The notes: generated by a model from the letters alone, not told the origin. 32,000 nt of DNA from Phycisphaera mikurensis NBRC 102666 (GCF_000284115.1 NC_017080.1:780001-812000), one strand, 5' to 3'; positions 3,356 to 25,084 are shown, counted from the stretch's first letter. Program-made: numbers and translations.

Positions 3356-3625
3356 GGAGCGACCCCGGGGCGCGCCGTCGCTTTCGCCCCGTCGCCGCCG
3401 AAGAGGACGCGGCCCCGCCTCCCGCTCCGCGGCGGGACCCGCTCCGGGCGGGTGCGGCGTGATACCCTCCCGCGCATCTGCCGCGACGGAACCCCGAGCC
3501 GGGGTCGCGGCGGGGCGTTCACCGTTCCTCTGCGGTCTTGGGCTCCGGACCCCGACCCGCACGATCACCGGGGCATCGCATTGACCAACACCCGTTTCGC
3601 TTCCGCTCCGCACGCCGCCGCGGCC

Positions 3626-4426: not shown

Positions 4427-4568
4427 CGGGCCACCGCAACGCCGTCGGGGCGGCGAGCGGGCCCGATCGCGACTCGCTTCGTCGGGCGAGGCTTCCGTCG
4501 GCGACAGCGGCGCGGCTTCCGCTCCCCCCGCGAGCCACGACCTGGTCGCGCTCCCGCCCGACGCGGGG

Positions 4569-7905: not shown

Positions 7906-9234
7906 ATGCCTGAATCCACCCGCCGCGTGATGCTCATCTCGACGCACGGCTACGTCTCCTCGCAGATCGAGTTCGGCAAGCCCGACACCGGCGGGCAGGT
8001 CGTCTACGTGCTCGAGCTCGCCAAGTGCATGGGCCGCTTCGGCTTCCAGGTCGACCTCTACACCCGCCGCTTCGAGGGGCAGGACGAGATCGAGCAGGTC
8101 GACGAGAACACCCGCATCGTGCGGGTGCCCTGCGGCGGCGACGACTTCATCGGCAAGGAGACGCTCTGCGACTTCATCCCCGAGTGGGTCGAGAACGCGA
8201 AGGCGAAGGTGGAGGAGGTCCAGAAGGCCGAGGGCAAGTACACCTTCGTGAACAGCCACTACTGGGACGCGGGCCTCGCGGGCATGGGCATGGCCCACCA
8301 CCTCAAGATCCCGCACATCTTCACGCCCCACTCCATCGGCGCCTGGAAGCGGAAGAACATGGACGGCGACCCCGAGGAGCTCGAGAAGCAGTACCACTTC
8401 AAGCGGCGGGTGAAGGAAGAGAACGTCATCTTCTCAGACTGCGACTCGATCATCGCGACCACGCCCCAGCAGCGCGACATCCTCCAGGACGTGGAGTACA
8501 AGGTCGCGCCGGCGAAGATCCACGTGATCCCGCCCGGCTACGACGACACCAAGTACTTCCCCATCTCCGAGGCCTCGCGGGCGGCGCTGCGGGCGGACCA
8601 CGGCTTCGACGGGCGGATCGTGATGGCGCTGGGCCGCATCGCCCGCAACAAGGGCTACGACCTGCTCATCAAGGCGATGCCCGAGGTGCTCAAGCGTCAC
8701 CGCGACGCGAAGCTGCTGCTGGCGATCGGCTCGACCGAGCCCAGCAAGGCGGAGATCGAGATGGTCGACGGCTTCAAGGAGCTCGCCAGCGAGCTGGGCA
8801 TCCGCGACCGGGTCGTCTTCGGCGACTACATCCCCGACGAGGAGATGCCGGACTTCTACCGCATGGCCGACGTGTTCTGCCTGTGCTCGCGCTACGAGCC
8901 CTTCGGCATGACCGCCGTGGAGGCGATGGCCTGCGGCACCCCGACGGTCATCACCACCGAGGGCGGCCTGTGGGAGCGCGTGGCGTACGGGCAGCAGGCC
9001 CTCTACGCGAACCCTTTCGACCCCTACGAGTACGGCGCCGCGATCCACAACCTGCTGCAGCACCCGCGGCTGTGGGCGAACACCAGCCGCGACGGCAGCC
9101 ACCTGGCCCGCGCCGAGTTCACCTGGGTGGGCATCGCCCAGCAGGTCATCAACCTGGTGAAGACCAGCGACGTGATGAGCACCCACGACGAGGCGCGGGC
9201 GGAGGCGCAGCGGGAGTTCTCGACGAGTGGATGA
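7906..9234 (+). CDS. GT4 glycosyltransferase of the sucrose-phosphate synthase type (glucosyltransferase-only form); mannosylfructose-phosphate synthase is the alternative
   Basis: GKPDTGGQVVYVLELAK, FTPHSIGAWK, GRIARNKGYDLL and SRYEPFGMTAVEAMACGTP. It is followed by an SPP-like HAD phosphatase. Confidence 0.75.
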   Translation: MPESTRRVMLISTHGYVSSQIEFGKPDTGGQVVYVLELAKCMGRFGFQVDLYTRRFEGQDEIEQVDENTRIVRVPCGGDDFIGKETLCDFIPEWVENAKAKVEEVQKAEGKYTFVNSHYWDAGLAGMGMAHHLKIPHIFTPHSIGAWKRKNMDGDPEELEKQYHFKRRVKEENVIFSDCDSIIATTPQQRDILQDVEYKVAPAKIHVIPPGYDDTKYFPISEASRAALRADHGFDGRIVMALGRIARNKGYDLLIKAMPEVLKRHRDAKLLLAIGSTEPSKAEIEMVDGFKELASELGIRDRVVFGDYIPDEEMPDFYRMADVFCLCSRYEPFGMTAVEAMACGTPTVITTEGGLWERVAYGQQALYANPFDPYEYGAAIHNLLQHPRLWANTSRDGSHLARAEFTWVGIAQQVINLVKTSDVMSTHDEARAEAQREFSTSG

Positions 9235-9395
9235 AGGGGGTCGGGAGAAGCGAAGAAGCGAAGAAGCGAAGAAGTTGGGAAGCGAAGAAGTCAGGCACCG
9301 CGTCGGCTGCGCCGACCGGAGGACACGCACCGCCGAGCGGAGCGATGGCGCGCCTGCCTGACTTCCTCGCTTCCCCGCTTCTCCGCTTCTCCGCT
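9225..9395. repeat. Copy 1 of a ~171-bp long-hairpin element whose arms are built from 8-mer GCGAAGAA units
   Basis: It starts GAGTGGATGAAGGG, overlapping the stop codon of the upstream gene (9232-9234). The left arm (~9243-9297) pairs with the right arm (9355-~9395) over ~40 bp. The core is ~57 nt (9298-9354). Confidence 0.85.
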
Positions 9396-9577
9396 GAGTG
9401 GATGAAGGGTGCCGGGAGAAGCGAAGAAGCGAAGAAGTTGGGAAGCAGAGAAGTCAGGCACCGCGTCGGCTGCGCCGACCGGAGGACACGCACCGCCGAG
9501 CGAAGCGATGGCGCGCCTGCCTGACTTCTTCGCTTCTTCGCTTCTTCGCTTCTCCGCTTCTCCGCTTCTTCGCTCCC
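9396..9577. repeat. Copy 2 of the same hairpin element, in direct tandem with copy 1
   Basis: Near-identical to copy 1 from GAGTGGATGAAGGG through the core. It differs in the number of 8-mer units in each arm and by a few substitutions. Confidence 0.85.
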
Positions 9578-10475: not shown

Positions 10476-11771
10476 ATGCCGAGCACCCCCGTGAGCGACC
10501 TGCAGGCCCCGCGCGGAACGCGCGACTTCTACCCCGAGGAGATGGCCCGGCACCGCCGGCTGCTCGACGCGTGGCGGCGCGTGTCCCTCCGCAACGGCTT
10601 CGAGGAGGTCGACGGGCCCATCTTCGAGACGCTCGACCTCTACAAGGTCAAATCCGGCGACGGCATCGTCTCGGAGCTGTTCAGCTTCCGCCGCGACGGC
10701 GGCTCCACCGACTACGCGCTGCGCGCCGAGTTCACGCCGACGCTGGCCCGCATGGTCGCCAAGCGGGCCAACGGCCTGCCCAAGCCGATCAAGTGGTTCG
10801 CCACGCCGAACTTCTGCCGGGCCGAGCGGCCCCAGCGGGGGCGGCTCCGCGAGTTCTGGCAGTGGAACGTCGACTTCCTCGGCGAGGCGGGCCCCTCCGC
10901 CGACGCCGAAGTCGTCTTCGTGCTCGTCGACCTGCTGCGCGAGCTCGGCGTGCGGGAGGGCCAGGTGCAGGTGCGGATCAGCCACCGGGCCGTCGTCGCC
11001 CAGGTGCTGCAGCGGCTGGGCGTGCCGGCAGAGAGGCTGACCGAGGCTTTCGAGCTGCTCGACAGCCGGAGCAAGCTCGAGCCCGGCGTGTTCGCCGAGC
11101 GTGCGGCGGGCCTGGGGCTGGATCCCCCGAAGGTGCAGCGGCTCGACGAGGTCTGCCGCCGCCGCTTCGCGGCGGGCGACCTAGGCCACCTCGCCCGGGC
11201 GCTGGGCATGGACGCCCCGCCGGACGACCTCGTCGGGCTCGACGCGCAGCTGGTCGCCTTCGGCATCGCCGGCTGGTGCGCCTACGACCTGGGCGTCGTC
11301 CGCGGGCTCGCGTACTACACGGGCACGGTGTTCGAGGCCTTCGAGACCGCCGGCGTCGAGCGGGCGCTCGCCGGCGGAGGCCGCTACGACCGGCTGATCG
11401 AGACCTTCGGCGGCCCGGCGATGCCCGCCGTCGGCTTCGGCATGGGCGACGTGGTGCTCGCGAACCTGCTCAGAGACAAGAAGCTCGAGCCCGAGCACGC
11501 GGGCGACGGGCCCGACGTGTTCATCGTCCCGCTGGCCGACGCGGACCCCGCCGCGGTCACCGGCTGGGTCGCACGCCTGCGAAGCGGAGGCCTGCACGCG
11601 CGCACCACGTACAAGCCGACCCGGAACACCGGCAAGCTGCTGAAGGAAGCGACGGGCGCCCGGGCCCGCTTCGCCCTGCTCGTCGGCGTCGATTCGCTCG
11701 AGCTCAAGAACCTGGCCACCGGCGAGCAGCAGGCGATCGCCGACGAGGACGTCGCCTCCCGCCTCCGCTGA
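10476..11771 (+). CDS. hisS: Histidine--tRNA ligase
   Basis: APRGTRDFYPEE, FCRAERPQRGRLREFWQWNVD, GLAYYTGTVFE and GGGRYD. Confidence 0.95.
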   Translation: MPSTPVSDLQAPRGTRDFYPEEMARHRRLLDAWRRVSLRNGFEEVDGPIFETLDLYKVKSGDGIVSELFSFRRDGGSTDYALRAEFTPTLARMVAKRANGLPKPIKWFATPNFCRAERPQRGRLREFWQWNVDFLGEAGPSADAEVVFVLVDLLRELGVREGQVQVRISHRAVVAQVLQRLGVPAERLTEAFELLDSRSKLEPGVFAERAAGLGLDPPKVQRLDEVCRRRFAAGDLGHLARALGMDAPPDDLVGLDAQLVAFGIAGWCAYDLGVVRGLAYYTGTVFEAFETAGVERALAGGGRYDRLIETFGGPAMPAVGFGMGDVVLANLLRDKKLEPEHAGDGPDVFIVPLADADPAAVTGWVARLRSGGLHARTTYKPTRNTGKLLKEATGARARFALLVGVDSLELKNLATGEQQAIADEDVASRLR

Positions 11772-11847: not shown

Positions 11848-12744
11848 ATGCCGATGACCCGCTCCCTCCTCTTCGTCGCCGCCCTGGGTCTGCTCGTCGG
11901 GTGGATCCTCTGGCGGCTGCAGAGCGGCCCGCCGGCTTTCGCTTCCCTGCCGGGGCCGACCCGGAGCGTCGTCTACAAGACGACGCCGCAGGGCGAGCTG
12001 CGGCTGTTCCTCCACGAGCCCGCCGAGCGGGGCATCGGACCCGCCCCGGCGGTGCTGTTCTTCCACGGCGGCGGCTGGCTGAACGGCACGGCGACGCAGT
12101 TCGACGGCCAGGCCGGCCGGCTCGCGGACCGGGGCATCGTGGGGATCCAGGCCGAGTACCGCCTCGCGGACCCGCACGGCGCGACGCCCTTCGCGTCGCT
12201 CGCCGACGCGATCACGGCGATGCGGTACGTCCGCCGCCACGCGGCCGGGCTGGGCGTCGACCCCGGCCGCGTGGCCGCGGGCGGCGGCTCCGCCGGCGGC
12301 CACCTCGCCGCGGCGCTCGCGACGGCGACGGCGGAGGACTTGGACACCGACCCGCCCGCGGACCGCGGCGTCTCGTACCGGCCGGACGCGCTGATCCTCT
12401 TCAATCCGGTCTACGACAACGGCCCCGGCGGCTACGGCCACGAGCGGATCGGCGACCGCTACACCGACTTCTCGCCGCTTCACAACCTCCACGCCGGCAT
12501 GCCGCCGACGCTGGTGATGCTCGGCGACCGCGACGACCTCGTACCCGTCGCCACCGCGGAACGCTTCCGCGACGGCATGCGGGGCCTGGGCGTCCGCAGC
12601 GAGCTCATCGTCTACCCCGGCGAGACCCACGGCTTCTTCAACCCGCACCGCGGCCGCCGCGTCATGTACGAGCGGACGCTCGCGGCGACGGAGGCGTTCC
12701 TCGCGTCGCTGGGCTGGATCGGGCCGCCGCCGGGCTCGCGTTGA
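11848..12744 (+). CDS. Alpha/beta hydrolase (HSL-type esterase/lipase fold) with an N-terminal anchor or signal
   Basis: HGGGW oxyanion motif (VLFFHGGGWLNG), nucleophile elbow GGSAGGH, and hydrophobic N-terminus SLLFVAALGLLVGWILW. Confidence 0.8.
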   Translation: MPMTRSLLFVAALGLLVGWILWRLQSGPPAFASLPGPTRSVVYKTTPQGELRLFLHEPAERGIGPAPAVLFFHGGGWLNGTATQFDGQAGRLADRGIVGIQAEYRLADPHGATPFASLADAITAMRYVRRHAAGLGVDPGRVAAGGGSAGGHLAAALATATAEDLDTDPPADRGVSYRPDALILFNPVYDNGPGGYGHERIGDRYTDFSPLHNLHAGMPPTLVMLGDRDDLVPVATAERFRDGMRGLGVRSELIVYPGETHGFFNPHRGRRVMYERTLAATEAFLASLGWIGPPPGSR

Positions 12745-12770
12745 GGGAAACCGGGGGAGCACCGCGACGC

Positions 12771-12799
12771 TCGACGCGTTCATGATAATCGGTTATCAT
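12771..12799 (+). promoter_or_regulatory. Putative promoter (TCGACG-17 nt-TATCAT) overlapped by the perfect palindrome ATGATAA-TCGG-TTATCAT (12782-12799), a Fur/Zur-box-like operator
   Basis: This is the only strongly AT-rich palindrome I saw in the window. Its TGATAA/TTATCA half-sites match the classic Fur-family half-site. It lies upstream of the first H-X9-DG/PEP-CTERM module. Confidence 0.5.
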
Positions 12800-12805
12800 G
12801 GTGCG

Positions 12806-12922
12806 GTGCCCAAGCCGCCCCCGAGCCACGAAGCCGTTCGATCCGCGAGTCCCGCGGCGCGGGCGGCAGCGGGTGCGCAGCGCCCGGGCCGCGGTGCCGC
12901 GTGCGGCAGGGCCGGCCGGTGA
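12806..12922 (+). pseudogene. 38-codon remnant of a Fur-family regulator paralogue (internal deletion)
   Basis: From GTG 12806 it reads VPKPPPSHEAVRS..., versus the intact regulator VPRSSPHAASVER... from GTG 16065. The preceding 22 nt are 19/22 identical (TCGGTTATCATGGTGCGGTGCC versus TCGCCTATCATGGAGCGGTGCC). Its TGA (12920-12922) overlaps the next ATG, mirroring the TTTGA overlap at 16439-16442. Confidence 0.45.
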
Positions 12923-13152
12923 TGGGCGCCCGCTCCCTCCTCGCTCCGCTGCTGGCGCCCGCGCAGCCGTCCGCCCCCGGCGGCCCGGCCGGGTGGCTGG
13001 CGCACGCTCCCGGCGCGTCCGGGAGCCGCGGCGGCGCGACCCGCCACGCGGCGACCCACGCCGCCGCGGTGTCGCCCGCGGAGGGTGCGTTGCGGAACCC
13101 GGGCACGCGTCTCCGCTCGCCAGGCCGCGGACCGCCCGCCGCGGACGCCTGA
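12922..13152 (+). pseudogene. Decayed paralogue (76 codons) of the small His/Cys-rich membrane protein at 16439..16825
   Basis: Shared segments are GGPAGWLAHA versus GGPAGLLHHRLAHA and the C-terminus GRGPPAADA* versus DRGPPAADV*, with near-identical DNA across the stop. The His tract is eroded, the CxxC is lost (NPG-TRLR versus DPGCTLCH), and prolines interrupt the N-terminal helix. Confidence 0.45.
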
Positions 13153-13192
13153 CCGGCGGCGCGTTGGCGCCCCGCTCTGCCCCGTCCGCGGC
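13138..13192. repeat. Hairpin GCCGCGGACG-N35-CGTCCGCGGC spanning the small-ORF stop
   Basis: Perfect 10-bp inverted repeat at 13138-13147 and 13183-13192. The same stem sequence occurs at the equivalent junction at 16811-16870. Confidence 0.6.
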
Positions 13193-13241
13193 CGCCACCG
13201 GCCGCCGGTCAACACCCGCCCTCGCTCCAAGGAGGTGTGCC

Positions 13242-14021
13242 CTGCGCATCCGCTCCCCGGCTCCCGCTCCGCGCGCCTTCACGCTCATTGAGCTGCTGGT
13301 CGTCGTCTCCATCATCGCCCTGCTCATCGGGCTCCTGCTGCCGGCGCTGGGCAGCGCCCGCCGGACCGCTTCGGCGCTGGCCGACCTCAGCAACCTCAAG
13401 CAGATGGAGATCGCCCACGCCAGCTACGCCGTCGACAACGACAGCCGGCTGATCCAAGCCAACCTCGCGCACGGCGGCGTCGTTCACTACAACCCCGACG
13501 GCTCGCCCGTCGTGCCGTGGATCGACACGCTGCGGACGTACTACGCGGCCGATCTGGTCGTGCGCTCGCCGCTGGACGACAGCCCCCACTGGGGGCCGTT
13601 CCCCGCGGGCGAGCCCATCCCGGGCGCCCCGGCCAACCAGCGGCGCGTGACCAGCTACGGGATCAACACCTTCACCGACCCGGTGCTGGTGCCCTGGGGC
13701 CCGGGCTTCGTCTCGCCCTTCCGCGGGTACACGATGGACACGATCCGCCGACCGGCGTCGGTGGTGCACTTCCTGCCGATGGCCCACGGGGGCACGTTCG
13801 CCGGCGCCGACCACCCCCACGCCGAGGAGTGGCTGGTGCATCCCGTGCCCGCGTTCGCGGCGCAGGGCCAGGCGCAGATCAACGCCGTCAAGGGCGAGCC
13901 GGGCACCCCGGCCGCCGTCGCCAACTGGGGCTTCCTGGACGGCCACGCCGCCGCCACCGGGTTCTCGGAGCTGGTGACCGACCTCCAGCTCAACCGCCTC
14001 GACCCCGACCGCGCCCCCTGA
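13242..14021 (+). CDS. Prepilin-type N-terminal methylation-domain protein, DUF1559/H-X9-DG-like (copy A; the H of the motif is replaced)
   Basis: [30 protein letters not shown]. The C-terminal motif is ...PAAVANWGFLDGHAA, where the DG is kept but P replaces H. RBS AAGGAGG (13229-13235) lies 6 nt before an in-frame CTG at 13242. There is no ATG/GTG/TTG between the RBS and the leader, so the start codon is uncertain. The upstream part of track ORF 12798..14021 is non-coding-like. Confidence 0.8.
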   Translation: MRIRSPAPAPRAFTLIELLVVVSIIALLIGLLLPALGSARRTASALADLSNLKQMEIAHASYAVDNDSRLIQANLAHGGVVHYNPDGSPVVPWIDTLRTYYAADLVVRSPLDDSPHWGPFPAGEPIPGAPANQRRVTSYGINTFTDPVLVPWGPGFVSPFRGYTMDTIRRPASVVHFLPMAHGGTFAGADHPHAEEWLVHPVPAFAAQGQAQINAVKGEPGTPAAVANWGFLDGHAAATGFSELVTDLQLNRLDPDRAP

Positions 14022-14062
14022 GCGCGGCGGACCCCTTCCAAACGCAATCCACAAGGAACGCC

Positions 14063-14830
14063 ATGCAACACACGATCGCCCCCACCCTCCTCCTCGCCGC
14101 CGCCCTGGCTCCCGCGGCCGCCCACGCCGAGCACGCCGACGCGATGCTCCTGGTTGGCCCCGACGGGCGGCTGACCACCGGCCTCTACAGCTTCGACACC
14201 GCGACGGTGCTCGCCACCGACGAGCGCGTCTTCGAGGGCGAGTTCGACGCCTTCGGCATCGTCGCCGAGCCGGGCTTCAACGCGCTGCCGGCCGGGAGCG
14301 CCGGCCTCCCCGCGGGCTTCTCGGCGCTGCCGGGCAACACGCCGGTGACCTTCACCGGCCGCGCCTTCACCCAAGCCGGCGTGACGAGCAACCTCTGGCA
14401 CTGGGACGCCACCGGCCCGGTGGACTTCCAGCCGGTGACGGCTCCGACCTCGCTGGACATCAAGCGCTCGGTCTTCACCACCAACCTCGACGGCGGCTCC
14501 GCCGACGCGGCGGGCTTCCTCATCGACACCACCGGCGCCAGCGGCTCGCTGCACCGGCACGTGAGCTTCCAGGTGAACGACGGCGACGGCGACCCGCTCG
14601 TGCAGTCCGCGGCCGCGGGCTTCTACCTCTGGTCGATGGAGCTGGCCGTCGGATCCGCCCTCACCGCCGAGCCGATCTTCTTCGTCCACGGCCTCGGCGT
14701 CGAGAACGAGGCGCTCCACGAGCAGGCGATTGCCTTCGTCGAGGCCAACGTCGTGCCCGAGCCCACGGCGGCCCTGGGCCTGGCCGCCGCCGGCGTCGTG
14801 CTGCTGTCCCGCCGCCGCGCTGCGGCCTGA
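14063..14830 (+). CDS. PEP-CTERM-anchored secreted protein (A1)
   Basis: ATG 14063 follows AAGGAA. The signal peptide is MQHTIAPTLLLAAALAPAAAHA. The C-terminus VPEPTAALGLAAAGVVLLSRRRAAA shows the PEP motif, a TM segment and an Arg cluster. Confidence 0.85.
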   Translation: MQHTIAPTLLLAAALAPAAAHAEHADAMLLVGPDGRLTTGLYSFDTATVLATDERVFEGEFDAFGIVAEPGFNALPAGSAGLPAGFSALPGNTPVTFTGRAFTQAGVTSNLWHWDATGPVDFQPVTAPTSLDIKRSVFTTNLDGGSADAAGFLIDTTGASGSLHRHVSFQVNDGDGDPLVQSAAAGFYLWSMELAVGSALTAEPIFFVHGLGVENEALHEQAIAFVEANVVPEPTAALGLAAAGVVLLSRRRAAA

Positions 14831-14916
14831 TCGACCCCGACTTCGCGATCGGGCCCGTCGCCCGGTGGCTCCCCCGGCCGCTTCACCGCCGGCCGCCTCT
14901 CCGAAAATAACGAACC

Positions 14917-15861
14917 ATGAAACGACCCTCCGCCTTCCGCTCCCTCGCTTCGTTCCGCTCGCTCTGCTGCGTGTGCACCACCGCGGCGGCCGCCGCGGCC
15001 GCCACGGCCCCCGCCCCCGCGGACGCCTCGCCCGAGCCGGGCATCAACATCTACCACGTCGGCGTCGACGCCGGCGCGACCATCGGCTTCGGCCCGTACA
15101 AGGGCCTGGTCAACCCCAACGAGAACCGGCTCACGCTGTTCCTCTCGCACACCTTCACCGACACGCCCACCAGCAACCACTACCACCGCATCGGCTCGTA
15201 CGCCTACACCGGCGGTCCCGCCGACCCGCAGCCGGGCTTCTCGGGGAACAACCGGCTGCCCGAGCCCTACCAGCAGGACGACGGGCTGTCGCTGCTGCCC
15301 GGCTCGGGGGTCTTCGCGGGCAAGATGGTTTCGGGCCTGGGTCCCGCCGCCTTCCCCGGGGACGAGATCGAGGAGGAGTACGGCGACCTCACCGTGCGTC
15401 CCATCGACCAGCTGCTGCCCTTCGATGGACGCCTCGCCGACCCCGACGACCCGCGGGGCCAGCCCTTCCACCCCGGCCACTACCTGGTCAACGCCTCCGG
15501 GGGCGTCTACAAGACGCCGATCGCCGGCACCACCGTCGGGCTCCGGCTGACGGAGCTCTCTGAAGGCTTGGGCGTGTTCGACGCGAGCGGGAACGAGCTG
15601 TTCACCGGCGTCGGCGAGGTGCTCACCCTCGGCGACAGCGCCGACTGGTCCTTCTCGCCGGTCTTCGCGGCGGAAGGCGACGCCACGCCCGGCACCGCCT
15701 TCTCGGCGACCTTCGAGCTGACGGACCTCTCCGCCACGCCCACCTACGGCGACTCCGCCGCCTTCTCGGTGGACTTCGTGGCCGTGCCCGAGCCCACCGC
15801 GGCCCTCGCCCTCGCCCTCGCCGGCGTCGGCCTGCTCGGCCGGCGGCGCCGCCACGGCTGA
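14917..15861 (+). CDS. PEP-CTERM-anchored secreted protein (A2)
   Basis: The C-terminus is VPEPTAALALALAGVGLLGRRRRHG. There is an N-terminal hydrophobic/Ala-rich signal. His-containing motifs are SNHYHRIGSY and FHPGHY. Confidence 0.85.
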   Translation: MKRPSAFRSLASFRSLCCVCTTAAAAAAATAPAPADASPEPGINIYHVGVDAGATIGFGPYKGLVNPNENRLTLFLSHTFTDTPTSNHYHRIGSYAYTGGPADPQPGFSGNNRLPEPYQQDDGLSLLPGSGVFAGKMVSGLGPAAFPGDEIEEEYGDLTVRPIDQLLPFDGRLADPDDPRGQPFHPGHYLVNASGGVYKTPIAGTTVGLRLTELSEGLGVFDASGNELFTGVGEVLTLGDSADWSFSPVFAAEGDATPGTAFSATFELTDLSATPTYGDSAAFSVDFVAVPEPTAALALALAGVGLLGRRRRHG

Positions 15862-16030
15862 GCTTTCTCGTCGCGCCGGCTCCCGCACCGGGGGCCGGCG
15901 CCTTGGACGCCGCACGCCGCGGCGTCCGCCAAGAGGGTCCGCGACGGGCGCCCGAGGGTCCGCCCGCGCGGTCGGCTCCGAGGGCCGCGGATCCCCGTGT
16001 CGCGACGCGGGCGATCGGGTGGGTTTCTTC

Positions 16031-16058
16031 TTGGCGTCTCGCGAGAGTCGCCTATCAT
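16031..16058 (+). promoter_or_regulatory. Putative promoter of the Fur-family gene (TTGGCG-16 nt-TATCAT), paralogous to the block at 12771-12799
   Basis: TATCATGGAGCGGTGCC (16053-16069) matches TATCATGGTGCGGTGCC (12794-12810). Here the left half of the palindrome is degenerate (GAGAG versus GATAA). Confidence 0.4.
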
Positions 16059-16064
16059 GGAGCG

Positions 16065-16442
16065 GTGCCTCGCTCCTCCCCCCACGCCGCCTCCGTCGAG
16101 CGACTGCTGCGCGACGCGGCGGGGCCGATGTCGGCGGCGGAGGTGGCCGAGGCGCTGGCCCACACGGGGATCGGGATCGCGACCGTCTACCGGCTGCTCG
16201 GCCGCGGCGCGGAGGAGGGCCGGTACGTCGCGGTCGAGATGCCGCACGGCCCGGCCCGGTACGAGCCGGCGGACCGTCCGCATCACCACCACTTCGCGTG
16301 CACCGCGTGCGAGGCGGTGTACGACGTGCCCGGCTGCACGGGGAACCTCAAGAAGCTGGTGCCCGAGGGCTTCACGCTCGACGCCCACGAGATCCTGCTG
16401 ACCGGCCGGTGCGCGGACTGCAGCGCGGGGTCGAAGCTTTGA
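16065..16442 (+). CDS. Fur-family metalloregulator (Fur/Zur/Nur-type, 125 aa)
   Basis: Winged helix MSAAEVAEALAHTGIGIATVYRLLGRGAEEGRYVAVE, then RPHHHHFACTACEAVYDV and LLTGRCADC (HHHHFxCxxC...CxxC). The GTG 16065 start is inferred. The track start (TTG 15903) adds an Arg/Ala/Pro-rich stretch that looks non-coding. Confidence 0.8.
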   Translation: MPRSSPHAASVERLLRDAAGPMSAAEVAEALAHTGIGIATVYRLLGRGAEEGRYVAVEMPHGPARYEPADRPHHHHFACTACEAVYDVPGCTGNLKKLVPEGFTLDAHEILLTGRCADCSAGSKL

Positions 16443-16825
16443 GCGTCACGCGACCGCTCCTGTTCCTGGTCGCCGCCGCGCTCCTGCTGAGCCTCGGCGG
16501 CCCCGCCGGCCTGCTGCACCATCGGCTGGCTCACGCGGGCGGCCACGCCGCGGCTCACGGCGGGCACGGCCACGCGCACGCTCATGCGGACGCTCCCGCT
16601 TCGCCGGCTCCCGACGAGCCCGCGGACCCGCAGGAGCCAGCCGACCCGGGCTGCACGCTCTGCCACGCCCTCGCGCACCCGCTCGCGGTGCCGCCGCAGC
16701 CGGTCGTCGCGGCCCCGCTCCCGCCGCTGGGCGCGGCGGTGCGCGCTGCCCGGCCCCGGTCGGTCTACGCGACCTCTCAACGGAGCCGTCCGCCGGACCG
16801 CGGACCGCCCGCCGCGGACGTCTAA
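16439..16825 (+). CDS. Small membrane-anchored His-rich/CxxC protein (128 aa), DUF2946-like by motif
   Basis: TTG 16439 overlaps the regulator stop (TTTGA). The sequence is SVTRPLLFLVAAALLLSLGG (TM), then HHRLAHAGGHAAAHGGHGHAHAHAD, then a Pro/Asp/Glu linker and GCTLCHALAHPLAVPP. Confidence 0.65.
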   Translation: MSVTRPLLFLVAAALLLSLGGPAGLLHHRLAHAGGHAAAHGGHGHAHAHADAPASPAPDEPADPQEPADPGCTLCHALAHPLAVPPQPVVAAPLPPLGAAVRAARPRSVYATSQRSRPPDRGPPAADV

Positions 16826-16870
16826 GCGGCGGCGCCCCTGCGCGCCGCTCCGTCTCGCTCCGTCCGCGGC
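16811..16870. repeat. Hairpin GCCGCGGACG-N40-CGTCCGCGGC spanning the small-ORF stop
   Basis: Perfect 10-bp inverted repeat at 16811-16820 and 16861-16870, homologous to 13138-13192. Confidence 0.6.
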
Positions 16871-16933
16871 CCCCGGCTCCTCGCTGAGGGGCGGTCTCGC
16901 GGAACCCGGTCTCCCTGCTCTCCAACGGAAGTC

Positions 16934-17728
16934 GTGCCCGTGCGCACCCGCACCCCCGCCGCCCCCTCGGCGACGGCCTTCACGCTCATCGAGCTGCTGG
17001 TCGTCATCTCCATCATCGCCCTGCTGATCGGGCTGCTGCTGCCGGCGTTGGGCGCGGCGCGGGAGACCAGCCGGATGGCCAAGTGCCTCAGCAACAACCG
17101 GCAGATGGCGATCTCGACGGTCAACTTCGCCTACGCCGGTGCGCAGCCCGTGCGTCCGGCCGGCGCGTCCCGCGACGCGTCGCTGCTGCCCAGCGTCGGC
17201 TTCAGCCACGGCGGCAGCACCTACTCCGAGCAGGGGTCGTGGTTCTTCCTGCTGCAGGACTTCTCCGACGGAACGCTCGCCTGGCGGTGCGACTCCGACG
17301 AGAGCCCCGCGTGGGAGACGCCCCAGGGCAGCCCGTCGCGGCTGCGCCGGGTGAGCTACGCCACCAACTTCCTGTTGAGCGGCTTGAGCAGATCGATCGC
17401 GCCCTCGGGCCGGCCCTACCGCACCTACGCGGACCTGGACAAGATCCCGGCTCCGTCGGCCACCTGCTTCATCGTGGAGCTCGCCGAGGAAAGCTCGTCC
17501 GGCTTCGCGACGGCGGACCACGTCCACCCCGAGACCTGGACCGGCAACCTGCCGGCCATGCGGAACCAGATCGAGCTCGAGCAGCACGCCGGCAAGGCGA
17601 ACTACGCCTTCCTGGACGGCCACGCCTCCACCGAGCAGCGTGAGGGCGTGTACGACCTGGATCCCGCTTCGGTGATCCCCAACCTGATCTGGCGTGCGAA
17701 CGCCTTCGACCCGGAGGTCGCCCGCTAA
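16934..17728 (+). CDS. Prepilin-type N-terminal methylation-domain protein with an intact H-X9-DG motif (copy B)
   Basis: [30 protein letters not shown], and [12 protein letters not shown] at 17585-17620. The start is GTG 16934 or GTG 16940; GGAAG lies at 16927-16931. Confidence 0.85.
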
Positions 17729-17815
17729 AGGGCGGCTCCGGACCTCCCGTTCCGGGAGACCCTGGCGGGTGCGCGTTGCACCCGCGACGATCCGACGACT
17801 CTGGAGAATGATCCC

Positions 17816-18466
17816 ATGACGACCCTTTCCACCCTCAGCACCCGCGTCGCCCTCGGCGCCGCCGCCGCCGTCCTCGCCTTCCCCGCCGCGGCCGACGGCG
17901 AGGGCGACGGCGCCCCGCACGTCGCCGTCGCGCAGGAGCTCACCGGCGAGCTGGAGATCGAGTACGAGGTCGACGCCGGCCTCGACGAGTCCGTGACGCC
18001 GGTCCGGCTCACGCTCGACACCTCGGCTTACAGCACCCTCTACGCGGGCTTCCGCACCTTCCCCGTCAACGACACGCCCAGCCCCAACGACGACCTCGGC
18101 TTCGTGTCGGAGGTCGAGGGCGTCGACGAGGAGGGGGCGGCGCTCTCGGAGAGCATCGGCCTCCGTCTCCTGAGCAAGGACGCGGACTTCGCCATCTTCG
18201 ACGGCACGACCGAGATCCTCGCCTCGCCCAACGCGACCTTCAGCCTCGGCAACGCCTTCGACTTCCACCCGGTCTGGGTGCTCCGCACGCAGGACCAGGG
18301 CTTCTTGGGCACCTCCGACGCCTCGCTGGAGGTGTTCTCCGAGGCCACCGGTGACTCGATCGGCACCTTCGACGTCCGCCTGGCCGTCCCCGAGCCGACC
18401 ACCGCCGCGCTCTTCGGCATCGCCGGCACGCTGCTGCTCCGCCGCCGCCGCGACGCGCGGGCCTGA
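17816..18466 (+). CDS. PEP-CTERM-anchored secreted protein (B1), homologous to the C-terminal half of A2
   Basis: Signal MTTLSTLSTRVALGAAAAVLAFPAAA. The C-terminus is VPEPTTAALFGIAGTLLLRRRR. It shares the pattern GLRL..FD..LG..PV..E..GDS..F.V..VPEP with 14917..15861. Confidence 0.85.
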   Translation: MTTLSTLSTRVALGAAAAVLAFPAAADGEGDGAPHVAVAQELTGELEIEYEVDAGLDESVTPVRLTLDTSAYSTLYAGFRTFPVNDTPSPNDDLGFVSEVEGVDEEGAALSESIGLRLLSKDADFAIFDGTTEILASPNATFSLGNAFDFHPVWVLRTQDQGFLGTSDASLEVFSEATGDSIGTFDVRLAVPEPTTAALFGIAGTLLLRRRRDARA

Positions 18467-18498
18467 TCCTCACGCCGACGCTTCGGGAGGAGAAGAAG

Positions 18499-18550
18499 AC
18501 GCCGCGGACCGTCGCCGGTTCGCGGCGTTTTCGCGCGCGGTCCGCGGCGT
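18499..18550. terminator. Nested hairpins in the convergent gap. The outer is ACGCCGCGGACCG/CGGTCCGCGGCGT. The inner is CGCCG-GTTCG-CGGCG followed by TTTT (18513-18531).
   Basis: A perfect 13-bp inverted repeat at 18499-18511 and 18538-18550. The inner stem plus T-run looks like an intrinsic terminator for the + strand operon. Confidence 0.45.
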
Positions 18551-18669
18551 TTCGCTCGGCCGGAGGCGGCAGCGCCCGCCGCCGGGCCGCGCCTCCGGCG
18601 TGGCGAGGCACCCGGGCTTCGGACGCTGCGGGCGCCCGCGTCCTCCTCGGGATGCGGATCGGGCGCGAG

Positions 18670-19554
18670 CTAGTCCAGCGTCCGGACCTTCGTCTTGATC
18701 GTCATCTCCATCGGGAGCGTCATCGCGCCGGCCGCGGTTTCCCCGGTGATGGTCTGCGTGAGGTCCATCTCGCGGGCGAGGCCCGTCGCCCGGTCGAGGG
18801 TGGCGGTGCCGGACGTGCGGATCTGCATCCGCACGGTCGCCCCGCCGCCGGGCTGGAGGTTCATCTCGTTGTCGCCGTCCACGTCGAAGCGCGCGGACGC
18901 GTCGTCGAAGCCGGTCAGTGTCCAGCCCATGGCCACCTCCACGGGCAGGCCGCCGGGCGCGGCGATCTCCACGCTCTGCTCCCAGCGGTCGCCGACGGCA
19001 ATCGGACCCTCGGGGAGCTGCGGCTGGCCCCCCAGCATCGACTCGATCGTCCCTTGCGCCTCCTCCGCCACCGCGAGGTTGCCGGTGTCGGCGTCGACCA
19101 CGACGCCGCGGTCGGTCATCGTCGCCCGCACCGTCTCGCCGATCATGGCCGCCAACGGCCCGAAAGCCGCCGCCGCGGGTCCCTCCGCGGGCGGCCCGGG
19201 ATCGTCGCTGTCGTAGCGCATCGGCTCGGCGTTGGGAACGTCGAGTTCCATCGTCGCCCGCTGGATCGTCGTCGCGAGGACGAAGTCGCCTTCGGCGGGC
19301 TTCTCGTCGAGCGTGACCATCGAGGTCTCCAGGGTCATGTCGGTGCGCACGTCCATCGGCTTGTCCTGCCCCGGAACCGGCTGCCGCATCCGCATCTCCA
19401 TGACCATCCGCTGGCGGACGGCTTCGCCGACCGGGGGGTTCAGGCGGAGCCGGATCGTCTCCGCCGCGGCGGCGGGCGCGGGAGCGGCAACGATGAGCGA
19501 GGCCGCGAGGGCGAGCAAGGGGGCGGTGCCGCTTCCGGCGAGCTTGTTGGGCAT
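18670..19554 (-). CDS. Secreted hypothetical protein (294 aa)
   Basis: Signal peptide MPNKLAGSGTAPLLALAASLIVAAPAPAAAAE and a balanced Met/Thr/Glu/Asp-rich composition. The overlapping + ORF 18652..19602 is Arg/Gly/His junk. Confidence 0.7.
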   Translation of the reverse strand: MPNKLAGSGTAPLLALAASLIVAAPAPAAAAETIRLRLNPPVGEAVRQRMVMEMRMRQPVPGQDKPMDVRTDMTLETSMVTLDEKPAEGDFVLATTIQRATMELDVPNAEPMRYDSDDPGPPAEGPAAAAFGPLAAMIGETVRATMTDRGVVVDADTGNLAVAEEAQGTIESMLGGQPQLPEGPIAVGDRWEQSVEIAAPGGLPVEVAMGWTLTGFDDASARFDVDGDNEMNLQPGGGATVRMQIRTSGTATLDRATGLAREMDLTQTITGETAAGAMTLPMEMTIKTKVRTLD

Positions 19555-19845: not shown

Positions 19846-20592
19846 ATGGCCTCCAAGCACCCGAAGCGAACCCCAACGCCCCGCTCGCCCGCTCCCGGCG
19901 GCGGCGGCGTGGTCTCCGCCGTGCTCGACCGCGGCACGGGGCCGGTCGCCGCCGGCGTGGCCAGCGCGCTGGACAGCCACGTGCTCGTGCTCAACAAGAT
20001 GTGGATGGCGATCCGCGTGGTCGACGGCCGCGGCGCGTTCCAGCTGCTGTGCCGCTCGATGGCCGAAGTCATCCGCGTCGACGACGGCAGCTACCAGGGG
20101 CACACGCTGGAGAGCTGGGCCGACGTGGCGGACACCCTCCGCTCCTTGCGGAAGGCGGATCCGGGCGTCGCGCACTACGACTGGGTGCGGACCGTCCGCG
20201 CCGACCTGCCGGTGCCCAAGGTCATCCGCCTGCTCGGCTACGACAAGCTGCCCGCCCAGGGCGTGAAGCTGAACCGCCGCAACATCTTCGCCCGCGACAA
20301 GAACCTCTGCCAGTACTGCGGCGGGAGCTTCCCGACGAGCGAGCTGTCGCTCGACCACGTCGTCCCGCGCAGCCAGGGCGGCGGCACCAGCTGGGAGAAC
20401 CTCGTGTGCTCGTGCGTCCGATGCAACAGCCGCAAGGGCGGGCGGACGCCCAAGCAGGCGCAGATGCCGCTGATCACGGTGCCGGTGCGGCCGCGGCGGA
20501 ACCCGGTGCTCTCGGTGCGCGTGGGCTCGGCGAAGTACGCGTCGTGGAAGGCTTTCCTGGACAACGCGTACTGGTCGGTGGAGCTGCGGTAG
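19846..20592 (+). CDS. HNH endonuclease family protein
   Basis: VLVLNKMWMAI..., RRNIFARDKNLCQYCGGSFPTSELSLDHVVPRSQGGGTSWENLVCSCVRCNSRKGGRTP. The N-terminal ~45 aa are low-complexity, so the true start may be later. Confidence 0.85.
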   Translation: MASKHPKRTPTPRSPAPGGGGVVSAVLDRGTGPVAAGVASALDSHVLVLNKMWMAIRVVDGRGAFQLLCRSMAEVIRVDDGSYQGHTLESWADVADTLRSLRKADPGVAHYDWVRTVRADLPVPKVIRLLGYDKLPAQGVKLNRRNIFARDKNLCQYCGGSFPTSELSLDHVVPRSQGGGTSWENLVCSCVRCNSRKGGRTPKQAQMPLITVPVRPRRNPVLSVRVGSAKYASWKAFLDNAYWSVELR

Positions 20593-20661: not shown

Positions 20662-21741
20662 TCACAGCTCGAGGCCTGATCGCTTCAACCGCTTCAGAAG
20701 GTCCGGCAGCTTGCGGACCGCCACCTCCTGGCGGATCCGGTCCTTGAAGTGCTGGGCGGGGATGCCGCCCCACTCCACGCCGGCGGGCACGTCGGCCATC
20801 ACCTGGCTGCCGCCGGCGAGCTTGGTGCCGGGGCCGATGGTGACGTGGTCGGCGAAGGCGGTGGCGCCGCCGACCATCACGCCGTCGCCGATCACGCAGG
20901 AGCCGGCGATGGCGCAGCAGCCGGAGATGACCACCAGGTCGCCGATGACCACGTTGTGCCCGACCTGCACGTGGTTGTCGATCTTGGTCTGGTTCCCGAT
21001 GCGGGTGGAGCCGAACTTGCCCTTGTCCACGCAGGTGCAGGCGCCCAGCTCGACGTCGTCGCCGATGACGACGTTGCCCAGGTGCGGGACCTTGCGGATG
21101 ATCGGCCGCCCGTCGTCGCCCGCGTCGCCGCGGAAGCCGAAGCCGTCGCCGCCGATGACCACGTTCGCGTGGGCGAGGAAGCGGGCGCCGATGCGGGTCC
21201 GTTCGCGGATCACCACGCCGGGCCAGAGCGTCCCGCCCGGGCCGATCACCGCGTCGGCGTAGACGTGGCTGCCGGCGTGGAGCACGCAGCCGTCGCCGAG
21301 CCGGACCCGCGGCCCGACGGTGCAGCCGGGGCCGATGGAGACGCCGTCTCCAACGTCCGCCGTCGGGTCGACCAGGGCTTGCGCGTGCACGCCCGCGGCG
21401 GGGGCCTCGTCCGCGGGCGTGATCGCCTCGAGCAGGCGGGCCATGCCCAGGTCGGCGTCGGCCACGCGGATCACCGGGGCGTGGTGGCCGTCGGCGCGGG
21501 GCGGGAGTTGCACGCCGCGGCTGGCCATGACCACGCCGGCTCGCGAGGCGGCGTAGCGGCCGGCCCAGGCCTGGACCGCGACGAACGAGAGGTCCGTCGG
21601 CTCCGCCTCGTGGAGCATCGCCAGGGCGGTGATGCGGGCGTCGGCGTCGCCGCTCTCCAGCTCGCCACCCACAAGCGCGGCGACCGCGCCGGCGTCGGCC
21701 GGGAGGCGGAAGTCGGGTTCGCTCCGGGGGGTTCCGCTCAC
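20662..21741 (-). CDS. lpxD: UDP-3-O-acylglucosamine N-acyltransferase
   Basis: Left-handed beta-helix hexapeptide repeats, GDGFGF, and HLGNVVIGDDVELGACTCVDKGKFGSTRIGNQTKIDNHVQVGHN. It lies downstream of skp-bamA. Confidence 0.9.
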   Translation of the reverse strand: MSGTPRSEPDFRLPADAGAVAALVGGELESGDADARITALAMLHEAEPTDLSFVAVQAWAGRYAASRAGVVMASRGVQLPPRADGHHAPVIRVADADLGMARLLEAITPADEAPAAGVHAQALVDPTADVGDGVSIGPGCTVGPRVRLGDGCVLHAGSHVYADAVIGPGGTLWPGVVIRERTRIGARFLAHANVVIGGDGFGFRGDAGDDGRPIIRKVPHLGNVVIGDDVELGACTCVDKGKFGSTRIGNQTKIDNHVQVGHNVVIGDLVVISGCCAIAGSCVIGDGVMVGGATAFADHVTIGPGTKLAGGSQVMADVPAGVEWGGIPAQHFKDRIRQEVAVRKLPDLLKRLKRSGLEL

Positions 21742-21751
21742 GGGCCGCTCG

Positions 21752-22360
21752 TCAGCCGTTCGCGTTGAGGCGGAGGAGGACGGCCTGCGTCAGGTCGACC
21801 TTGTCGCTGCTGTAGAGCACCTTGCGGTTCTGCAGGATGGCGGTGATCTGGTTGCGGTCCGCGCGGACCAGCTGCTCCATCTCGGGCAGGTCGCTGCTCT
21901 CGAGCACCAGGTCGAGGCCGCGGTCCTCGGCCACCGCCGCGACGGCCGCGGTGGCCCGCTCGTAGAGGTCGAGGAACTCGCGGGACTGGTCGGTGCCCTC
22001 GATCTGCTTGGAGATCTGCTCGTACGCCTGGAGGTTGGCGGCCATCTCCAGCACCTCGCGACGCTTCGCTTCCCAAGCGGGCGTCGCGGGTCCGAGCGCG
22101 TCGAGCTGGTTCTGCACGCCCTTCACCTCGCCCTGACGCCGCTGCATCTCCTCCGCGAAGCGTTGCTGCCGGGCCTGCCGGGCCTCCTGCATCTGCTTGA
22201 ACCGGTCCGAGCCGTCGAGCACCGCCTGCAGGTCGACCACGCCCACGCCCGCGGCAGGGGTGGCGCTGGAGCCGGCTTGAGCCACGACGGGCTGCGGCCG
22301 CAGCTGCAGGAGGCCGAGCGCCAAGACGGCCGCGGCCAGCAGGAGAGTGAGCGTCTTCAT
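21752..22360 (-). CDS. skp: OmpH/Skp-family periplasmic chaperone
   Basis: A signal peptide followed by a Gln/Glu/Arg-rich coiled region (FKQMQEARQARQQRFAEEMQRRQGE). It sits between bamA and lpxD. Confidence 0.8.
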   Translation of the reverse strand: MKTLTLLLAAAVLALGLLQLRPQPVVAQAGSSATPAAGVGVVDLQAVLDGSDRFKQMQEARQARQQRFAEEMQRRQGEVKGVQNQLDALGPATPAWEAKRREVLEMAANLQAYEQISKQIEGTDQSREFLDLYERATAAVAAVAEDRGLDLVLESSDLPEMEQLVRADRNQITAILQNRKVLYSSDKVDLTQAVLLRLNANG

Positions 22361-22460
22361 GCCGCCAAGGTAGCGGGCACGGCTTCGCGCAGCGGACCGG
22401 GCGGCACGCCGCCGAGCCCTCCGGGGGCCGGCCCCTCGGCCGCGGCGCCGGCGGCGGCGC

Positions 22461-25010: not shown

Positions 25011-25084
25011 CCCCGACGGTTATGCTCCGGGGCACCCTTGAAGCTCCGCACGCGGCGGTGGCTTCGCCACCGCGGAGGCGCACC

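Follow-up and report, generated by a model that had tools for sequence, protein, structure and literature searches.

Gene organization of the locus

The locus described here lies at positions 12771-18553 of a 32,000-nucleotide stretch of the Phycisphaera mikurensis NBRC 102666 genome (NC_017080.1:780001-812000; this whole stretch is called the window, and coordinates are counted from its first letter). Exact matches of its proteins led to P. mikurensis contig JACHEL010000006.1 of assembly GCA_014207395.1. Two head-to-tail groups of genes on the + strand code for two pseudopilin-like proteins of the DUF1559/H-X9-DG type, three PEP-CTERM proteins, a Fur-family regulator and a small protein with His and Cys motifs. 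An earlier description made from the sequence alone (the original prediction) had interpreted them as a tandemly duplicated, Fur-linked and metal-responsive envelope cassette. Because the GC content of about 74% gives rise to many long spurious open reading frames (ORFs), reading frames were selected by third-position GC (GC3). Every called frame in the two groups was backed by GC3 frame plots, and the groups lie at the coordinates originally given. The first group appears to form one transcription unit (unit A, 12771-15861) consisting of a truncated leader, ppA, pep255 and the gene of a ZepA protein, the second another (unit B, 16031-18553) consisting of the genes of the Fur-family regulator and a leader peptide, ppB and pep216. 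The region was compared with 14 related loci (referred to by L numbers); together the 15 loci contain 17 ppB-type modules. Unit B is closed by the expected terminator-like structure, a GC-rich hairpin with short T-runs, one of them directly following it (18498-18553, +; dG -43.3, z -2.8), and a similar element is located 3' of pep216 in L003.

Scanning 12600-18800 (6.2 kb) for sigma-70 promoters returned exactly two sites, with about 0.1 expected by chance. Promoter A (12771-12799, +) has the -35 box TCGACG, a 17-nucleotide spacer and the -10 box TATCAT, promoter B (16031-16058, +) the -35 box TTGGCG, a 16-nucleotide spacer and the same -10 box. The two promoter blocks, which had been described as common to both modules, are identical at 27 positions over an alignment of about 35 nucleotides. 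In both units the -10 box is located 6 nucleotides 5' of a GTG codon (12806 in A, 16065 in B), and L003, L004, L016 and L018 show the same geometry at their Fur genes, L003 and L018 also at ppA. Since the -10 box is repeatedly so close to the start codon, the transcripts of both units are probably leaderless.

The AT-rich palindrome noticed in the original prediction is the 16-bp sequence TGATAATCGGTTATCA (12783-12798; 7-2-7), which lies in the spacer of promoter A, overlaps the -10 box and is the single match in the 32-kb window (0.07 expected). Promoter B contains a degenerate version, CGAGAGTCGCCTATCA (16042-16057), matching at 10 of the 14 specified positions; the sites in the orthologous Fur promoters of the relatives match at 12-14. 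Of the 14 related loci, 11 have a 16-mer of this kind between the -35 and -10 boxes upstream of a pseudopilin or Fur gene, and it is all but absent from the rest of their sequence (operator-bearing relatives: L003, L004, L005, L006, L009, L010, where it occurs twice, L011, L012, L016 and L018). The palindrome is a candidate binding site of a Fur- or Zur-like repressor.

Such a regulator, 125 amino acids long and Zur-like, is encoded by the first gene of unit B (16065-16442, +). Its assignment to the Fur family agrees with a score of 42.5 bits with PF01475 (cut-off 23.1). The start is GTG 16065; the ATG inside TATCATGG is out of frame. The protein contains HHHH (residues 73-76) and two CXXC pairs, CTAC (79-82) and CADC (116-119). 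These motifs (in seven orthologues), as well as H108 and E67, are invariant across the regulator orthologues. As already described, the stop codon of the gene overlaps the TTG start of the next one (TTGA, 16439-16442), and this overlap couples translation of the leader peptide to that of the regulator.

The third gene of unit B, ppB (16934-17728, +), encodes a prepilin-type, pseudopilin-like protein of 264 amino acids. The prepilin leader and the H-X9-DG motif predicted for it were both found: the score with TIGR02532 was 18.1 (cut-off 16.3), that with PF07963 was 19.1, just under the cut-off of 21.2, and H-X9-DG-H is encoded at 17585-17623 (H218-X9-D228-G229). A second motif, DHVHPETW, is encoded at 17516-17539. 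Family models were approached but not reached (PF07596, 14.9 against 23.3; TIGR04294, 18.3 against 19). Among 46 members of the ppB subfamily all have the prepilin motif and 38 match PF07596. Invariant in the subfamily (P0001 numbering) are C49, C117, D193, H194, H196, H216, D226 and H228, and nearly invariant are H90, E198 and W200. Judged from this conservation, the D-H-x-H-x-E-x-W and D-G-H residues probably form a metal site. The AlphaFold2 model of ppB is confident (pLDDT 91.8).

General DUF1559/H-X9-DG proteins (PF07596, TIGR04294), which occur in Planctomycetota and Verrucomicrobiota, share with ppB the class III signal, the pilin helix and the C-terminal H-X9-DG. To our knowledge no function has been assigned to them. 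A profile search returned about 390,000 DUF1559-like representatives at E<=1e-3, of which the ppB subfamily makes up about 900 (919 at E<=1e-30); DHxH was present in 114 of 142 new top representatives. A scan of metagenomes with the ppB profile was swamped by the generic FTLIELL pattern, and the 80 general DUF1559 loci obtained were reused as a control set. None of the 80 contains DHxHxExW, and an ORF ending in R[AG]PP is linked to the gene in one of them, a count that is a lower bound because many of the control contigs are short. Thus the ppB subfamily differs from the general family in an added DHxH(P)ExW motif, which is invariant and which none of the 80 sampled loci contains, and in its genes, each of which has a PEP-CTERM partner and stands under an operator, an arrest-peptide leader or both.

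The product of ppA (13164-14021, +; start uncertain) is a DUF1559-like, prepilin-type paralogue about 40% identical to ppB. FTLIE is encoded at 13278, DHPHAEEW at 13809-13832 and DGH at the C-terminus, and the prepilin motif scored 23.5 bits with TIGR02532. The description of ppA as an intact H-X9-DG-like gene stood in part. The reading frame is open, and dN/dS relative to the L018 orthologue is 0.35 (0.21-0.53 for the neighbouring genes). However, the His of H-X9-DG is replaced by Pro 10 positions before DG, as it is in the L003 and L018 orthologues, and a conserved Cys is absent. The annotators placed the start at TTG 13164, and the codon homologous to the GTG of ppB and the ATG of L016 is CTG 13242, preceded by an intact AAGGAGG. 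A pseudogene was considered on account of the lost start codon and Cys, but with a dN/dS like that of its neighbours this was not concluded. The L003 orthologue (8647-9452, on a metagenome contig) is frameshifted into ORFs of 206 and 80 amino acids, which marks either a pseudogene or an assembly error.

All three proteins predicted to be PEP-CTERM proteins carry the signal, with TIGR02595 scores of 22.6, 18.6 (pep255) and 20.5 (ZepA) against a cut-off of 16; no exosortase gene was found within the window. The 314-amino-acid protein encoded at 14917-15861 (+) matched NF040463 over all of its 227 model positions (1-227) with 272.9 bits (cut-off 75, E 2.4e-81). It contains the His triad H78-X9-H88-Y-H90 (H78-TFTDTPTSN-H88-Y-H90, 15148-15186), corresponding to the H-X2-9-H-F/Y-H that defines the putative zinc site of the ZepA family. 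ZepA (All3515) is a Zur-repressed exoprotein that mediates zinc uptake in Anabaena, and homologues from Proteobacteria, Nitrospirota and the Planctomycetes-Verrucomicrobia-Chlamydiae (PVC) group were zinc-specific in an E. coli assay (Sarasa-Buisan et al. 2024, PMC10957091). Members of the family were defined as sharing at least 35% identity with Anabaena ZepA at a coverage of 75% or more and as having PEP-CTERM at the C-terminus. The supplement of that paper lists the P. mikurensis protein (WP_014436087.1, 314 amino acids; 37.25% identity, 75% coverage, E 4e-37). By sequence, 14917-15861 is therefore the already annotated ZepA/All3515 zinc-uptake exoprotein, a known part of the present finding.

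The same authors reported a FUR-family gene and further PEP-CTERM genes in the neighbourhood of zepA in PVC genomes, and inferred downstream partners without identifying them; the words pilin, prepilin, DUF1559 and DUF2946 are absent from the main text (PMC10957091). The P. mikurensis locus agrees with the Zur-ZepA system in the signal-type N-terminus, the H-Xn-H-Y-H triad and the PEP-CTERM of the protein, in the adjoining FUR-family and further PEP-CTERM genes, and in a palindromic site overlapping the promoter. It differs in the position of zepA at the end of an operon led by a DUF1559 pseudopilin gene, in that a second operon lies alongside (regulator, DUF2946 leader, pseudopilin, triad-less ZepA relative), and in its 16-bp operator of the 7-2-7 type.

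The other two PEP-CTERM genes are less readily classified. pep255 (14063-14830, +) belongs to an unknown family, has orthologues in L003 and L018 and has no partner in module B. pep216 (17816-18466, +) is, by profile comparison, a distant relative but not a member of ZepA: homology is limited to 99 columns of the C-terminal half (hhalign probability 96.9%), NF040463 gave 15.2 against the cut-off of 75, and N-D-D-L stands at the position of the His triad. DGAPH and FDxHP are invariant in the pep216 family, which comprises 23 clusters among 5.8e9 proteins and six GTDB species, all of them annotated as Phycisphaeraceae, Phycisphaera or Planctomycetota. The model of pep216 is an all-beta sandwich, and its fold matches were weak and generic with no specific solved relative. 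The PEP-CTERM partners in L013 (6768-7382) and L015 (6907-7497) have the predicted mature N-termini GGGHNHADED and GGHGHEHED, resembling the His/Asp/Glu-rich N-terminus described for Anabaena ZepA. The L015 protein has His at position 3, like the amino-terminal copper- and nickel-binding (ATCUN) motif.

The small protein encoded between the regulator and ppB

The gene overlapping the regulator gene (16439-16825, +) codes for 128 amino acids arranged in a characteristic order: an N-terminal hydrophobic helix, nine His, CTLC (16652-16663), 45 residues, RGPP (16799-16810), AADV and the stop codon. Its N-terminus, R-PLLFLVAAALLLSLGG, was recognized by inspection as an export helix, and all orthologues are similar in this respect. 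The profile search proposed for this protein led to DUF2946: the score with PF11162 was 22.5 bits, just under the gathering threshold of 23.7, three orthologues scored above it (25.0, 25.3 and 29.4) and two below (16.3 and 11.6), and the orthologues align over the whole 117-position profile. The protein also matched the CzcI-like model NF045614 (E 6.6e-4). Because a homology search gave only 2 homologues among 5.8e9 proteins, the family was collected by pattern from the fetched loci. Ten related ORFs besides that of the window (L003, L004, L008, two in L010, L013-L016 and L018) have the arrangement CXXC-x43-47-R[AG]PP-x2-8-stop, in which RGPP and RAPP interchange between orthologues (RAPP in L018 and L013). 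In the six-frame translation of the window R[AG]PP occurs within 8 residues of a stop codon four times, three of which are such leader ORFs. The full CXXC-spacer-R[AG]PP-stop pattern was found in none of 200 randomised windows.

This arrangement is that of an arrest peptide of Bordetella pertussis. CruR (Bp2923) has an export signal, CXXC, 45 residues and RAPP 3 residues before the stop codon; in the absence of copper a ribosome stalled on RAPP blocks Rho, and the downstream uptake genes are expressed, whereas copper relieves the stall and leads to termination of transcription (Roy et al. 2022, PMC9426467). Arrest by CruR was shown in vitro by Fujiwara et al. (2025, PMC12992588), who found RAPP and RGPP to be the most robust arrest cores, avoided in proteomes and concentrated close to the C-terminal ends of small exported proteins encoded upstream of genes under regulation. 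In the supplement to that work 'DUF1559 domain-containing protein' is tabulated as a class of downstream genes enriched for RAPP (6.5-fold) and RGPP (8.7-fold) upstream ORFs (uORFs), a class that is not discussed in the main text (PMC12992588). These tables, and the Zur-zepA pair published with the P. mikurensis protein itself among its examples (PMC10957091), put a regulator-linked context in print, of which the original prediction was not aware.

The window leader shares with CruR the export helix, CXXC, the spacing of about 45 residues, R[AG]PP shortly before the stop codon, an intergenic gap, here of 108 nucleotides, and, downstream, genes that look like an envelope uptake system. It differs in having RGPP (RAPP in L018) and an additional tract of 6-10 His, in being the second gene of its operon, coupled translationally to a Fur-family regulator, and in preceding a pseudopilin and a PEP-CTERM protein rather than a TonB-dependent transporter; the metal is probably zinc. 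The leader ORF comes second, behind the regulator gene, in the Fur-linked loci, and in L008 and L013-L015 it has neither a Fur gene nor an operator 5' of it. By analogy with CruR, the DUF2946 peptide would be translated right after the regulator, and the nascent leader would arrest the ribosome on RGPP near the stop codon, so that the stalled ribosome would keep the ppB-pep216 message transcribed and translated. Metal bound to the His-rich/CXXC segment, which 45 residues upstream would be just out of the exit tunnel, would relieve the arrest and lower downstream expression.

A CruR-like polarity is not the only one conceivable with these parts. CutF of Rhodobacter capsulatus, also a DUF2946 protein, is built from the same parts but works with the opposite polarity (Ozturk et al. 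2023, PMC9973294; preprint 10.1101/2025.02.05.636593). As in the mechanism proposed here, the metal sensor is exported co-translationally, stalls at a C-terminal proline motif and exerts its effect on the next gene in cis; with copper, a stem-loop in which the ribosome-binding site is hidden melts and a detoxification enzyme is switched on, whereas the genes regulated here look like uptake genes. If periplasmic metal enhanced stalling in P. mikurensis as well, ppB-pep216 would be switched on by it, and production of the system would be limited to cells whose cytoplasm is starved (repressor off) while substrate is present outside. A long stem taking in the RGPP codons is indeed predicted for unit B in the 108-nucleotide leader-ppB intergenic region (16826-16933, +; dG -98, z -2.9), and in CutF the downstream ribosome-binding site is hidden by such a structure. 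But the stem is not predicted in the corresponding region of module A (z -0.9), the leader-to-pseudopilin gaps of the relatives (about 60-235 nucleotides) are not alignable among orthologues, and for an uptake system it is the CruR polarity that has been documented. We therefore consider the CutF-like polarity improbable. With a strong stem in unit B, none in unit A and orthologous gaps that do not align, a conserved RNA switch is a possibility. A Rho-utilisation signal was also looked for, but the C/G ratio was uninformative.

The original prediction had regarded the small protein as a membrane protein of the cassette. A metallochaperone residing stably in the membrane, or a structural subunit of the module, could account for the hydrophobic helix, the His tract, CXXC and the match to NF045614, CzcI-type proteins being annotated as components of efflux systems, but it is hard to reconcile with the poor conservation outside the motifs (52% identity to the L018 orthologue and dN/dS 0.52, compared with 87% identity for ppB, and only the two homologues), with conservation of precisely the 43-47 spacing and, 2-8 residues from the stop codon, of an arrest motif that proteomes avoid, hallmarks of the CruR/RAPP type, and with dispensability of the gene in the operator-only loci L005, L009, L011 and L012, and we regard it as very doubtful. 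Fast evolution outside the motifs fits a nascent-chain sensor better than a structural subunit. On the motif layout, the protein is better read as a regulatory arrest-peptide leader.

A second ORF of the DUF2946 type is located on the opposite strand of the window (29112-28711, -; 133 amino acids). It has three CXXC motifs, the last of which, CPIC, is preceded by one His and followed by 46 residues, RAPP and AAG-stop. After a gap of about 120 nucleotides comes a prepilin-type DUF1559/H-X9-DG gene (28591-27851, -), followed by that of a BNR/Asp-box lipoprotein (27866-26643, -). The pairing of leader and pseudopilin thus occurs twice in 32 kb. This second pair has no operator, and its leader is Cys-rich, perhaps of a copper type.

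Conservation of the gene order and origin of the unit A leader

Failure of the gene order to be conserved had been named beforehand as a refuting observation. The order was kept in the related loci, and the reading of the locus as a metal-regulated cell-envelope module holds. In all 17 ppB-type modules the pseudopilin contains DHxHxExW and a PEP-CTERM gene comes next. Three layouts were distinguished: operator-Fur-leader-ppB-pep (the window, L003, L004, L010 twice, L016 and L018), operator-ppB-pep followed by a MerC-type permease gene and lacking the leader (L005, L009, L011 and L012), and leader-ppB-PEP-CTERM with no operator (L008, L013, L014 and L015). L006, with an operator and a divergent Fur gene, has neither leader nor MerC gene and falls outside these layouts. 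A MerC-family membrane protein gene is located directly 3' of the pair in five loci (L004, 8633-9274; L005, 8518-9189; L009, from 8780 to the contig end; L011, 1731-2306; L012, 8834-9595), mostly those lacking the leader ORF, and there is none at the P. mikurensis locus. The MerC-family protein is a candidate inner-membrane importer. In Phycisphaerae bacterium RAS2 (L014, 1-5369; CP036352.1) the module lies directly 3' of a resistance-nodulation-division (RND) cluster (ACR_tran, HMBD, OEP), which hints that some modules belong to heavy-metal rather than zinc loci.

Module A had been described as a duplicate of module B with decayed copies of the regulator and small-protein genes. No regulator remnant was found: comparison of 12811-12921 with the body of the Fur gene gave z 0.6 and no DNA or protein similarity. 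A 38-codon mini-ORF (12806-12922, +) starts at the GTG equivalent to the regulator start, but the likeness ends after the first two codons, and its TGA stop overlaps ATG 12922. A decayed copy of the regulator was therefore rejected, as only the promoter block and these two codons are common. In contrast, the decayed copy of the small gene was verified. The remnant leader ORF (12922-13152, +; 76 amino acids, or 83 from GTG 12901; GC3 0.95 in frame) matched the small gene with z 7.0, a score reached by none of 300 shuffles. Most of the likeness is in the last 33 nucleotides (RGPPAAD-stop) and continues into the intergenic region (repeat D3, 79% over 72 nucleotides). RGPP (13126-13137), AADA and the stop codon are retained, CXXC and the export helix are lost, and the remnant gave no match to Pfam. 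These features suggest a metal-blind stall leader, but the ORF could simply be decaying.

The closest relative, L018 (ppB 87% identical), has the same order, ppA-pep-ZepA followed by Fur-leader-ppB-pep, and its ppA stands directly, leaderlessly, behind its own operator. In L003 the two units occur in opposite order. These arrangements indicate that ppA and ppB, as well as ZepA and pep216, are old paralogues. Only the unit A leader, about 440 nucleotides long, is, by its sequence, a recent partial copy of the 5' region of unit B: the copy takes in the promoter with the first codons, the end of the leader ORF, the intergenic region that follows and the N-terminal part of the pilin, with 79-92% nucleotide identity in the matching segments. 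Of the proposed tandem duplication the recent leader copy thus stands, and the remainder, with ppA and ppB at about 40%, ZepA and pep216 related in the C-terminal half only, pep255 unpartnered and no decayed regulator, does not. A Phycisphaera metagenome-assembled genome (L010, 8811-11120) contains two tandem modules. In the second the operator, TGATAATCTATTATCA, is perfect, truncation has left about 70 residues of the Fur gene, the leader (CQVC-44-RGPP) is intact and the pseudopilin has diverged. The truncated Fur gene parallels the loss of the regulator from module A.

A proposed metal-acquisition system

We lean, if cautiously, towards the view that the locus encodes an envelope acquisition system for metal starvation, most likely for zinc, in two transcription units under combined transcriptional and arrest-peptide control. 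From the observed parts, their motifs, conservation and co-location we infer a model involving repressor binding to the palindrome, stalling and sensing by the leader, zinc as the metal and hand-over of the ion to a permease. At the first level, the metal-bound Zur-like repressor would sit on the spacer palindrome and block RNA polymerase, as the conserved sites suggest; in P. mikurensis it would find a perfect site in unit A and a degenerate one in its own promoter. The leader of unit B, acting with the CruR polarity, would add a second level. Since the unit A leader keeps RGPP without a sensor, unit A would answer to the repressor alone. Among the putative effectors, ZepA would scavenge zinc, pep216 and pep255 would be exosortase-sorted surface proteins, and ppA and ppB would be pilin-like proteins tethered to the inner membrane whose metal site passes the ion inward, in the relatives to the MerC-type permease encoded directly downstream.

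Two of the associations involved are previously undescribed, that of a CruR-type leader with a preceding Fur-family regulator, and that of a metal-motif subfamily of DUF1559 pseudopilins with ZepA-related PEP-CTERM proteins.

Several observations weigh against the proposal. The globular domain of ppB gave no significant match to solved structures beyond the N-terminal pilin/pseudopilin helix, and ppA has CTG at the homologous start position. The DUF2946 score of the window leader is just below threshold, and the leader is second in its operon, unlike the first-placed CruR. With a C/G ratio of 1.3-1.5 (1.4 at 16826-16933), like that of nearby coding sequence, the intergenic region is no C-richer than its surroundings, and nothing specific points to Rho. 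The remaining points concern the metal, and are considered with the alternatives to which they belong.

Of the metals originally listed (Zn, Cu, Ni or Fe), the comparison narrowed the choice to zinc as the most likely, not a proven, candidate. Subtyping of the regulator from sequence alone was not decisive: its best solved relative was the Zur of S. coelicolor (3mwm, E 9e-11), the Fur of Campylobacter scored nearly as well (7.5e-10), Nur and the Zur of M. tuberculosis were also close, and no threshold of the NCBIfam equivalog models was reached. Zinc was assigned to the regulator solely because of the ZepA context.

One alternative is a copper (or nickel/cobalt) system, in which the DUF2946 leader, like CruR and CutF, would be a copper sensor and copper would be the metal handled by the envelope proteins. 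Both characterised DUF2946 sensors respond to copper by means of a Cys motif, albeit with opposite polarities, and His-only CutF-like proteins have been linked to nickel and cobalt. The MerC-type heavy-metal permease downstream in five loci, the position of the RAS2 module behind the RND/HMBD/OEP efflux cluster and the ATCUN-like N-terminus (GGH...) to which the L015 partner would mature are also in line with such a system. On the other hand, we know of no copper-sensing Fur-family regulator, and ZepA homologues rescued growth specifically with zinc and not with copper, nickel, cobalt or cadmium. Moreover, the Fur-linked leaders have 6-10 His before a single CXXC, and it is the second, Cys-rich DUF2946 protein of the window that looks like a copper type. 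A copper system is thus unlikely.

Iron was considered as well. In this case the regulator would be a true Fur, and the pseudopilin and PEP-CTERM proteins would serve iron acquisition under starvation. The operator half-sites, TGATAAT/ATTATCA, are those of a classical Fur box, the score of Campylobacter Fur is almost level with that of Zur, and genes of an iron type adjoin or lie near the Fur-family gene in two relatives: FeoA (5187-5570) and FeoB (3142-5190), divergently, in L003, and flavodoxin (3053-3565) and ferredoxin in L004. However, the protein encoded behind the best operator is ZepA, of a family shown to be zinc-specific and Zur-repressed, and the Feo and flavodoxin neighbours are not kept across the other loci. 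In addition, FeoA and Fur are separated by a 577-nucleotide spacer in L003, and the sole operator in it adjoins the regulator gene at a distance of about 540 nucleotides from feoA, so that FeoAB was ruled out as a member of the regulon. An iron system therefore looks quite improbable, and zinc starvation remains the preferred explanation.

A further proposal, which we put forward as a speculative possibility, is that DHxHxExW/DGH pseudopilins are membrane-tethered periplasmic metal receptors rather than subunits of a secretion pilus, that in Phycisphaerae they could import zinc together with ZepA-type PEP-CTERM surface proteins and a MerC-type permease in a route without TonB or ABC transporters, and that the leader might be the first zinc-sensing member of the CruR/CutF class, working in series with Zur. 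Few paralogous expansions in Planctomycetota are as large as that of the DUF1559/H-X9-DG proteins, and the locus provides one subfamily with a first testable role by tying it to a metal regulon, a metal-sensing leader, a zinc exoprotein family and a metal permease. If the proposal is true, arrest-based sensing of the CruR/CutF type extends beyond Proteobacteria and copper, with an arrest-peptide leader stacked behind a transcriptional repressor. The genes described here are candidates for the downstream partners of ZepA.

The locus is preceded by the genes of histidyl-tRNA synthetase (HisRS; 10476-11771, +) and an esterase (11848-12744, +). Unit B is closely followed by the genes of a DUF6263 protein (18670-19554, -) and, beside it, of a stand-alone HNH endonuclease of 248 amino acids (19846-20592, +), which has a sub-threshold likeness to the HNH region of IscB/Cas9 (NF040563, E 5e-13, 48.8 bits, cut-off 175). 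Both appear unrelated to unit B. According to the gene calls of the source contig, they are immediately followed by an LpxD-Skp(OmpH)-BamA cluster for outer-membrane biogenesis (20662-25019, -).

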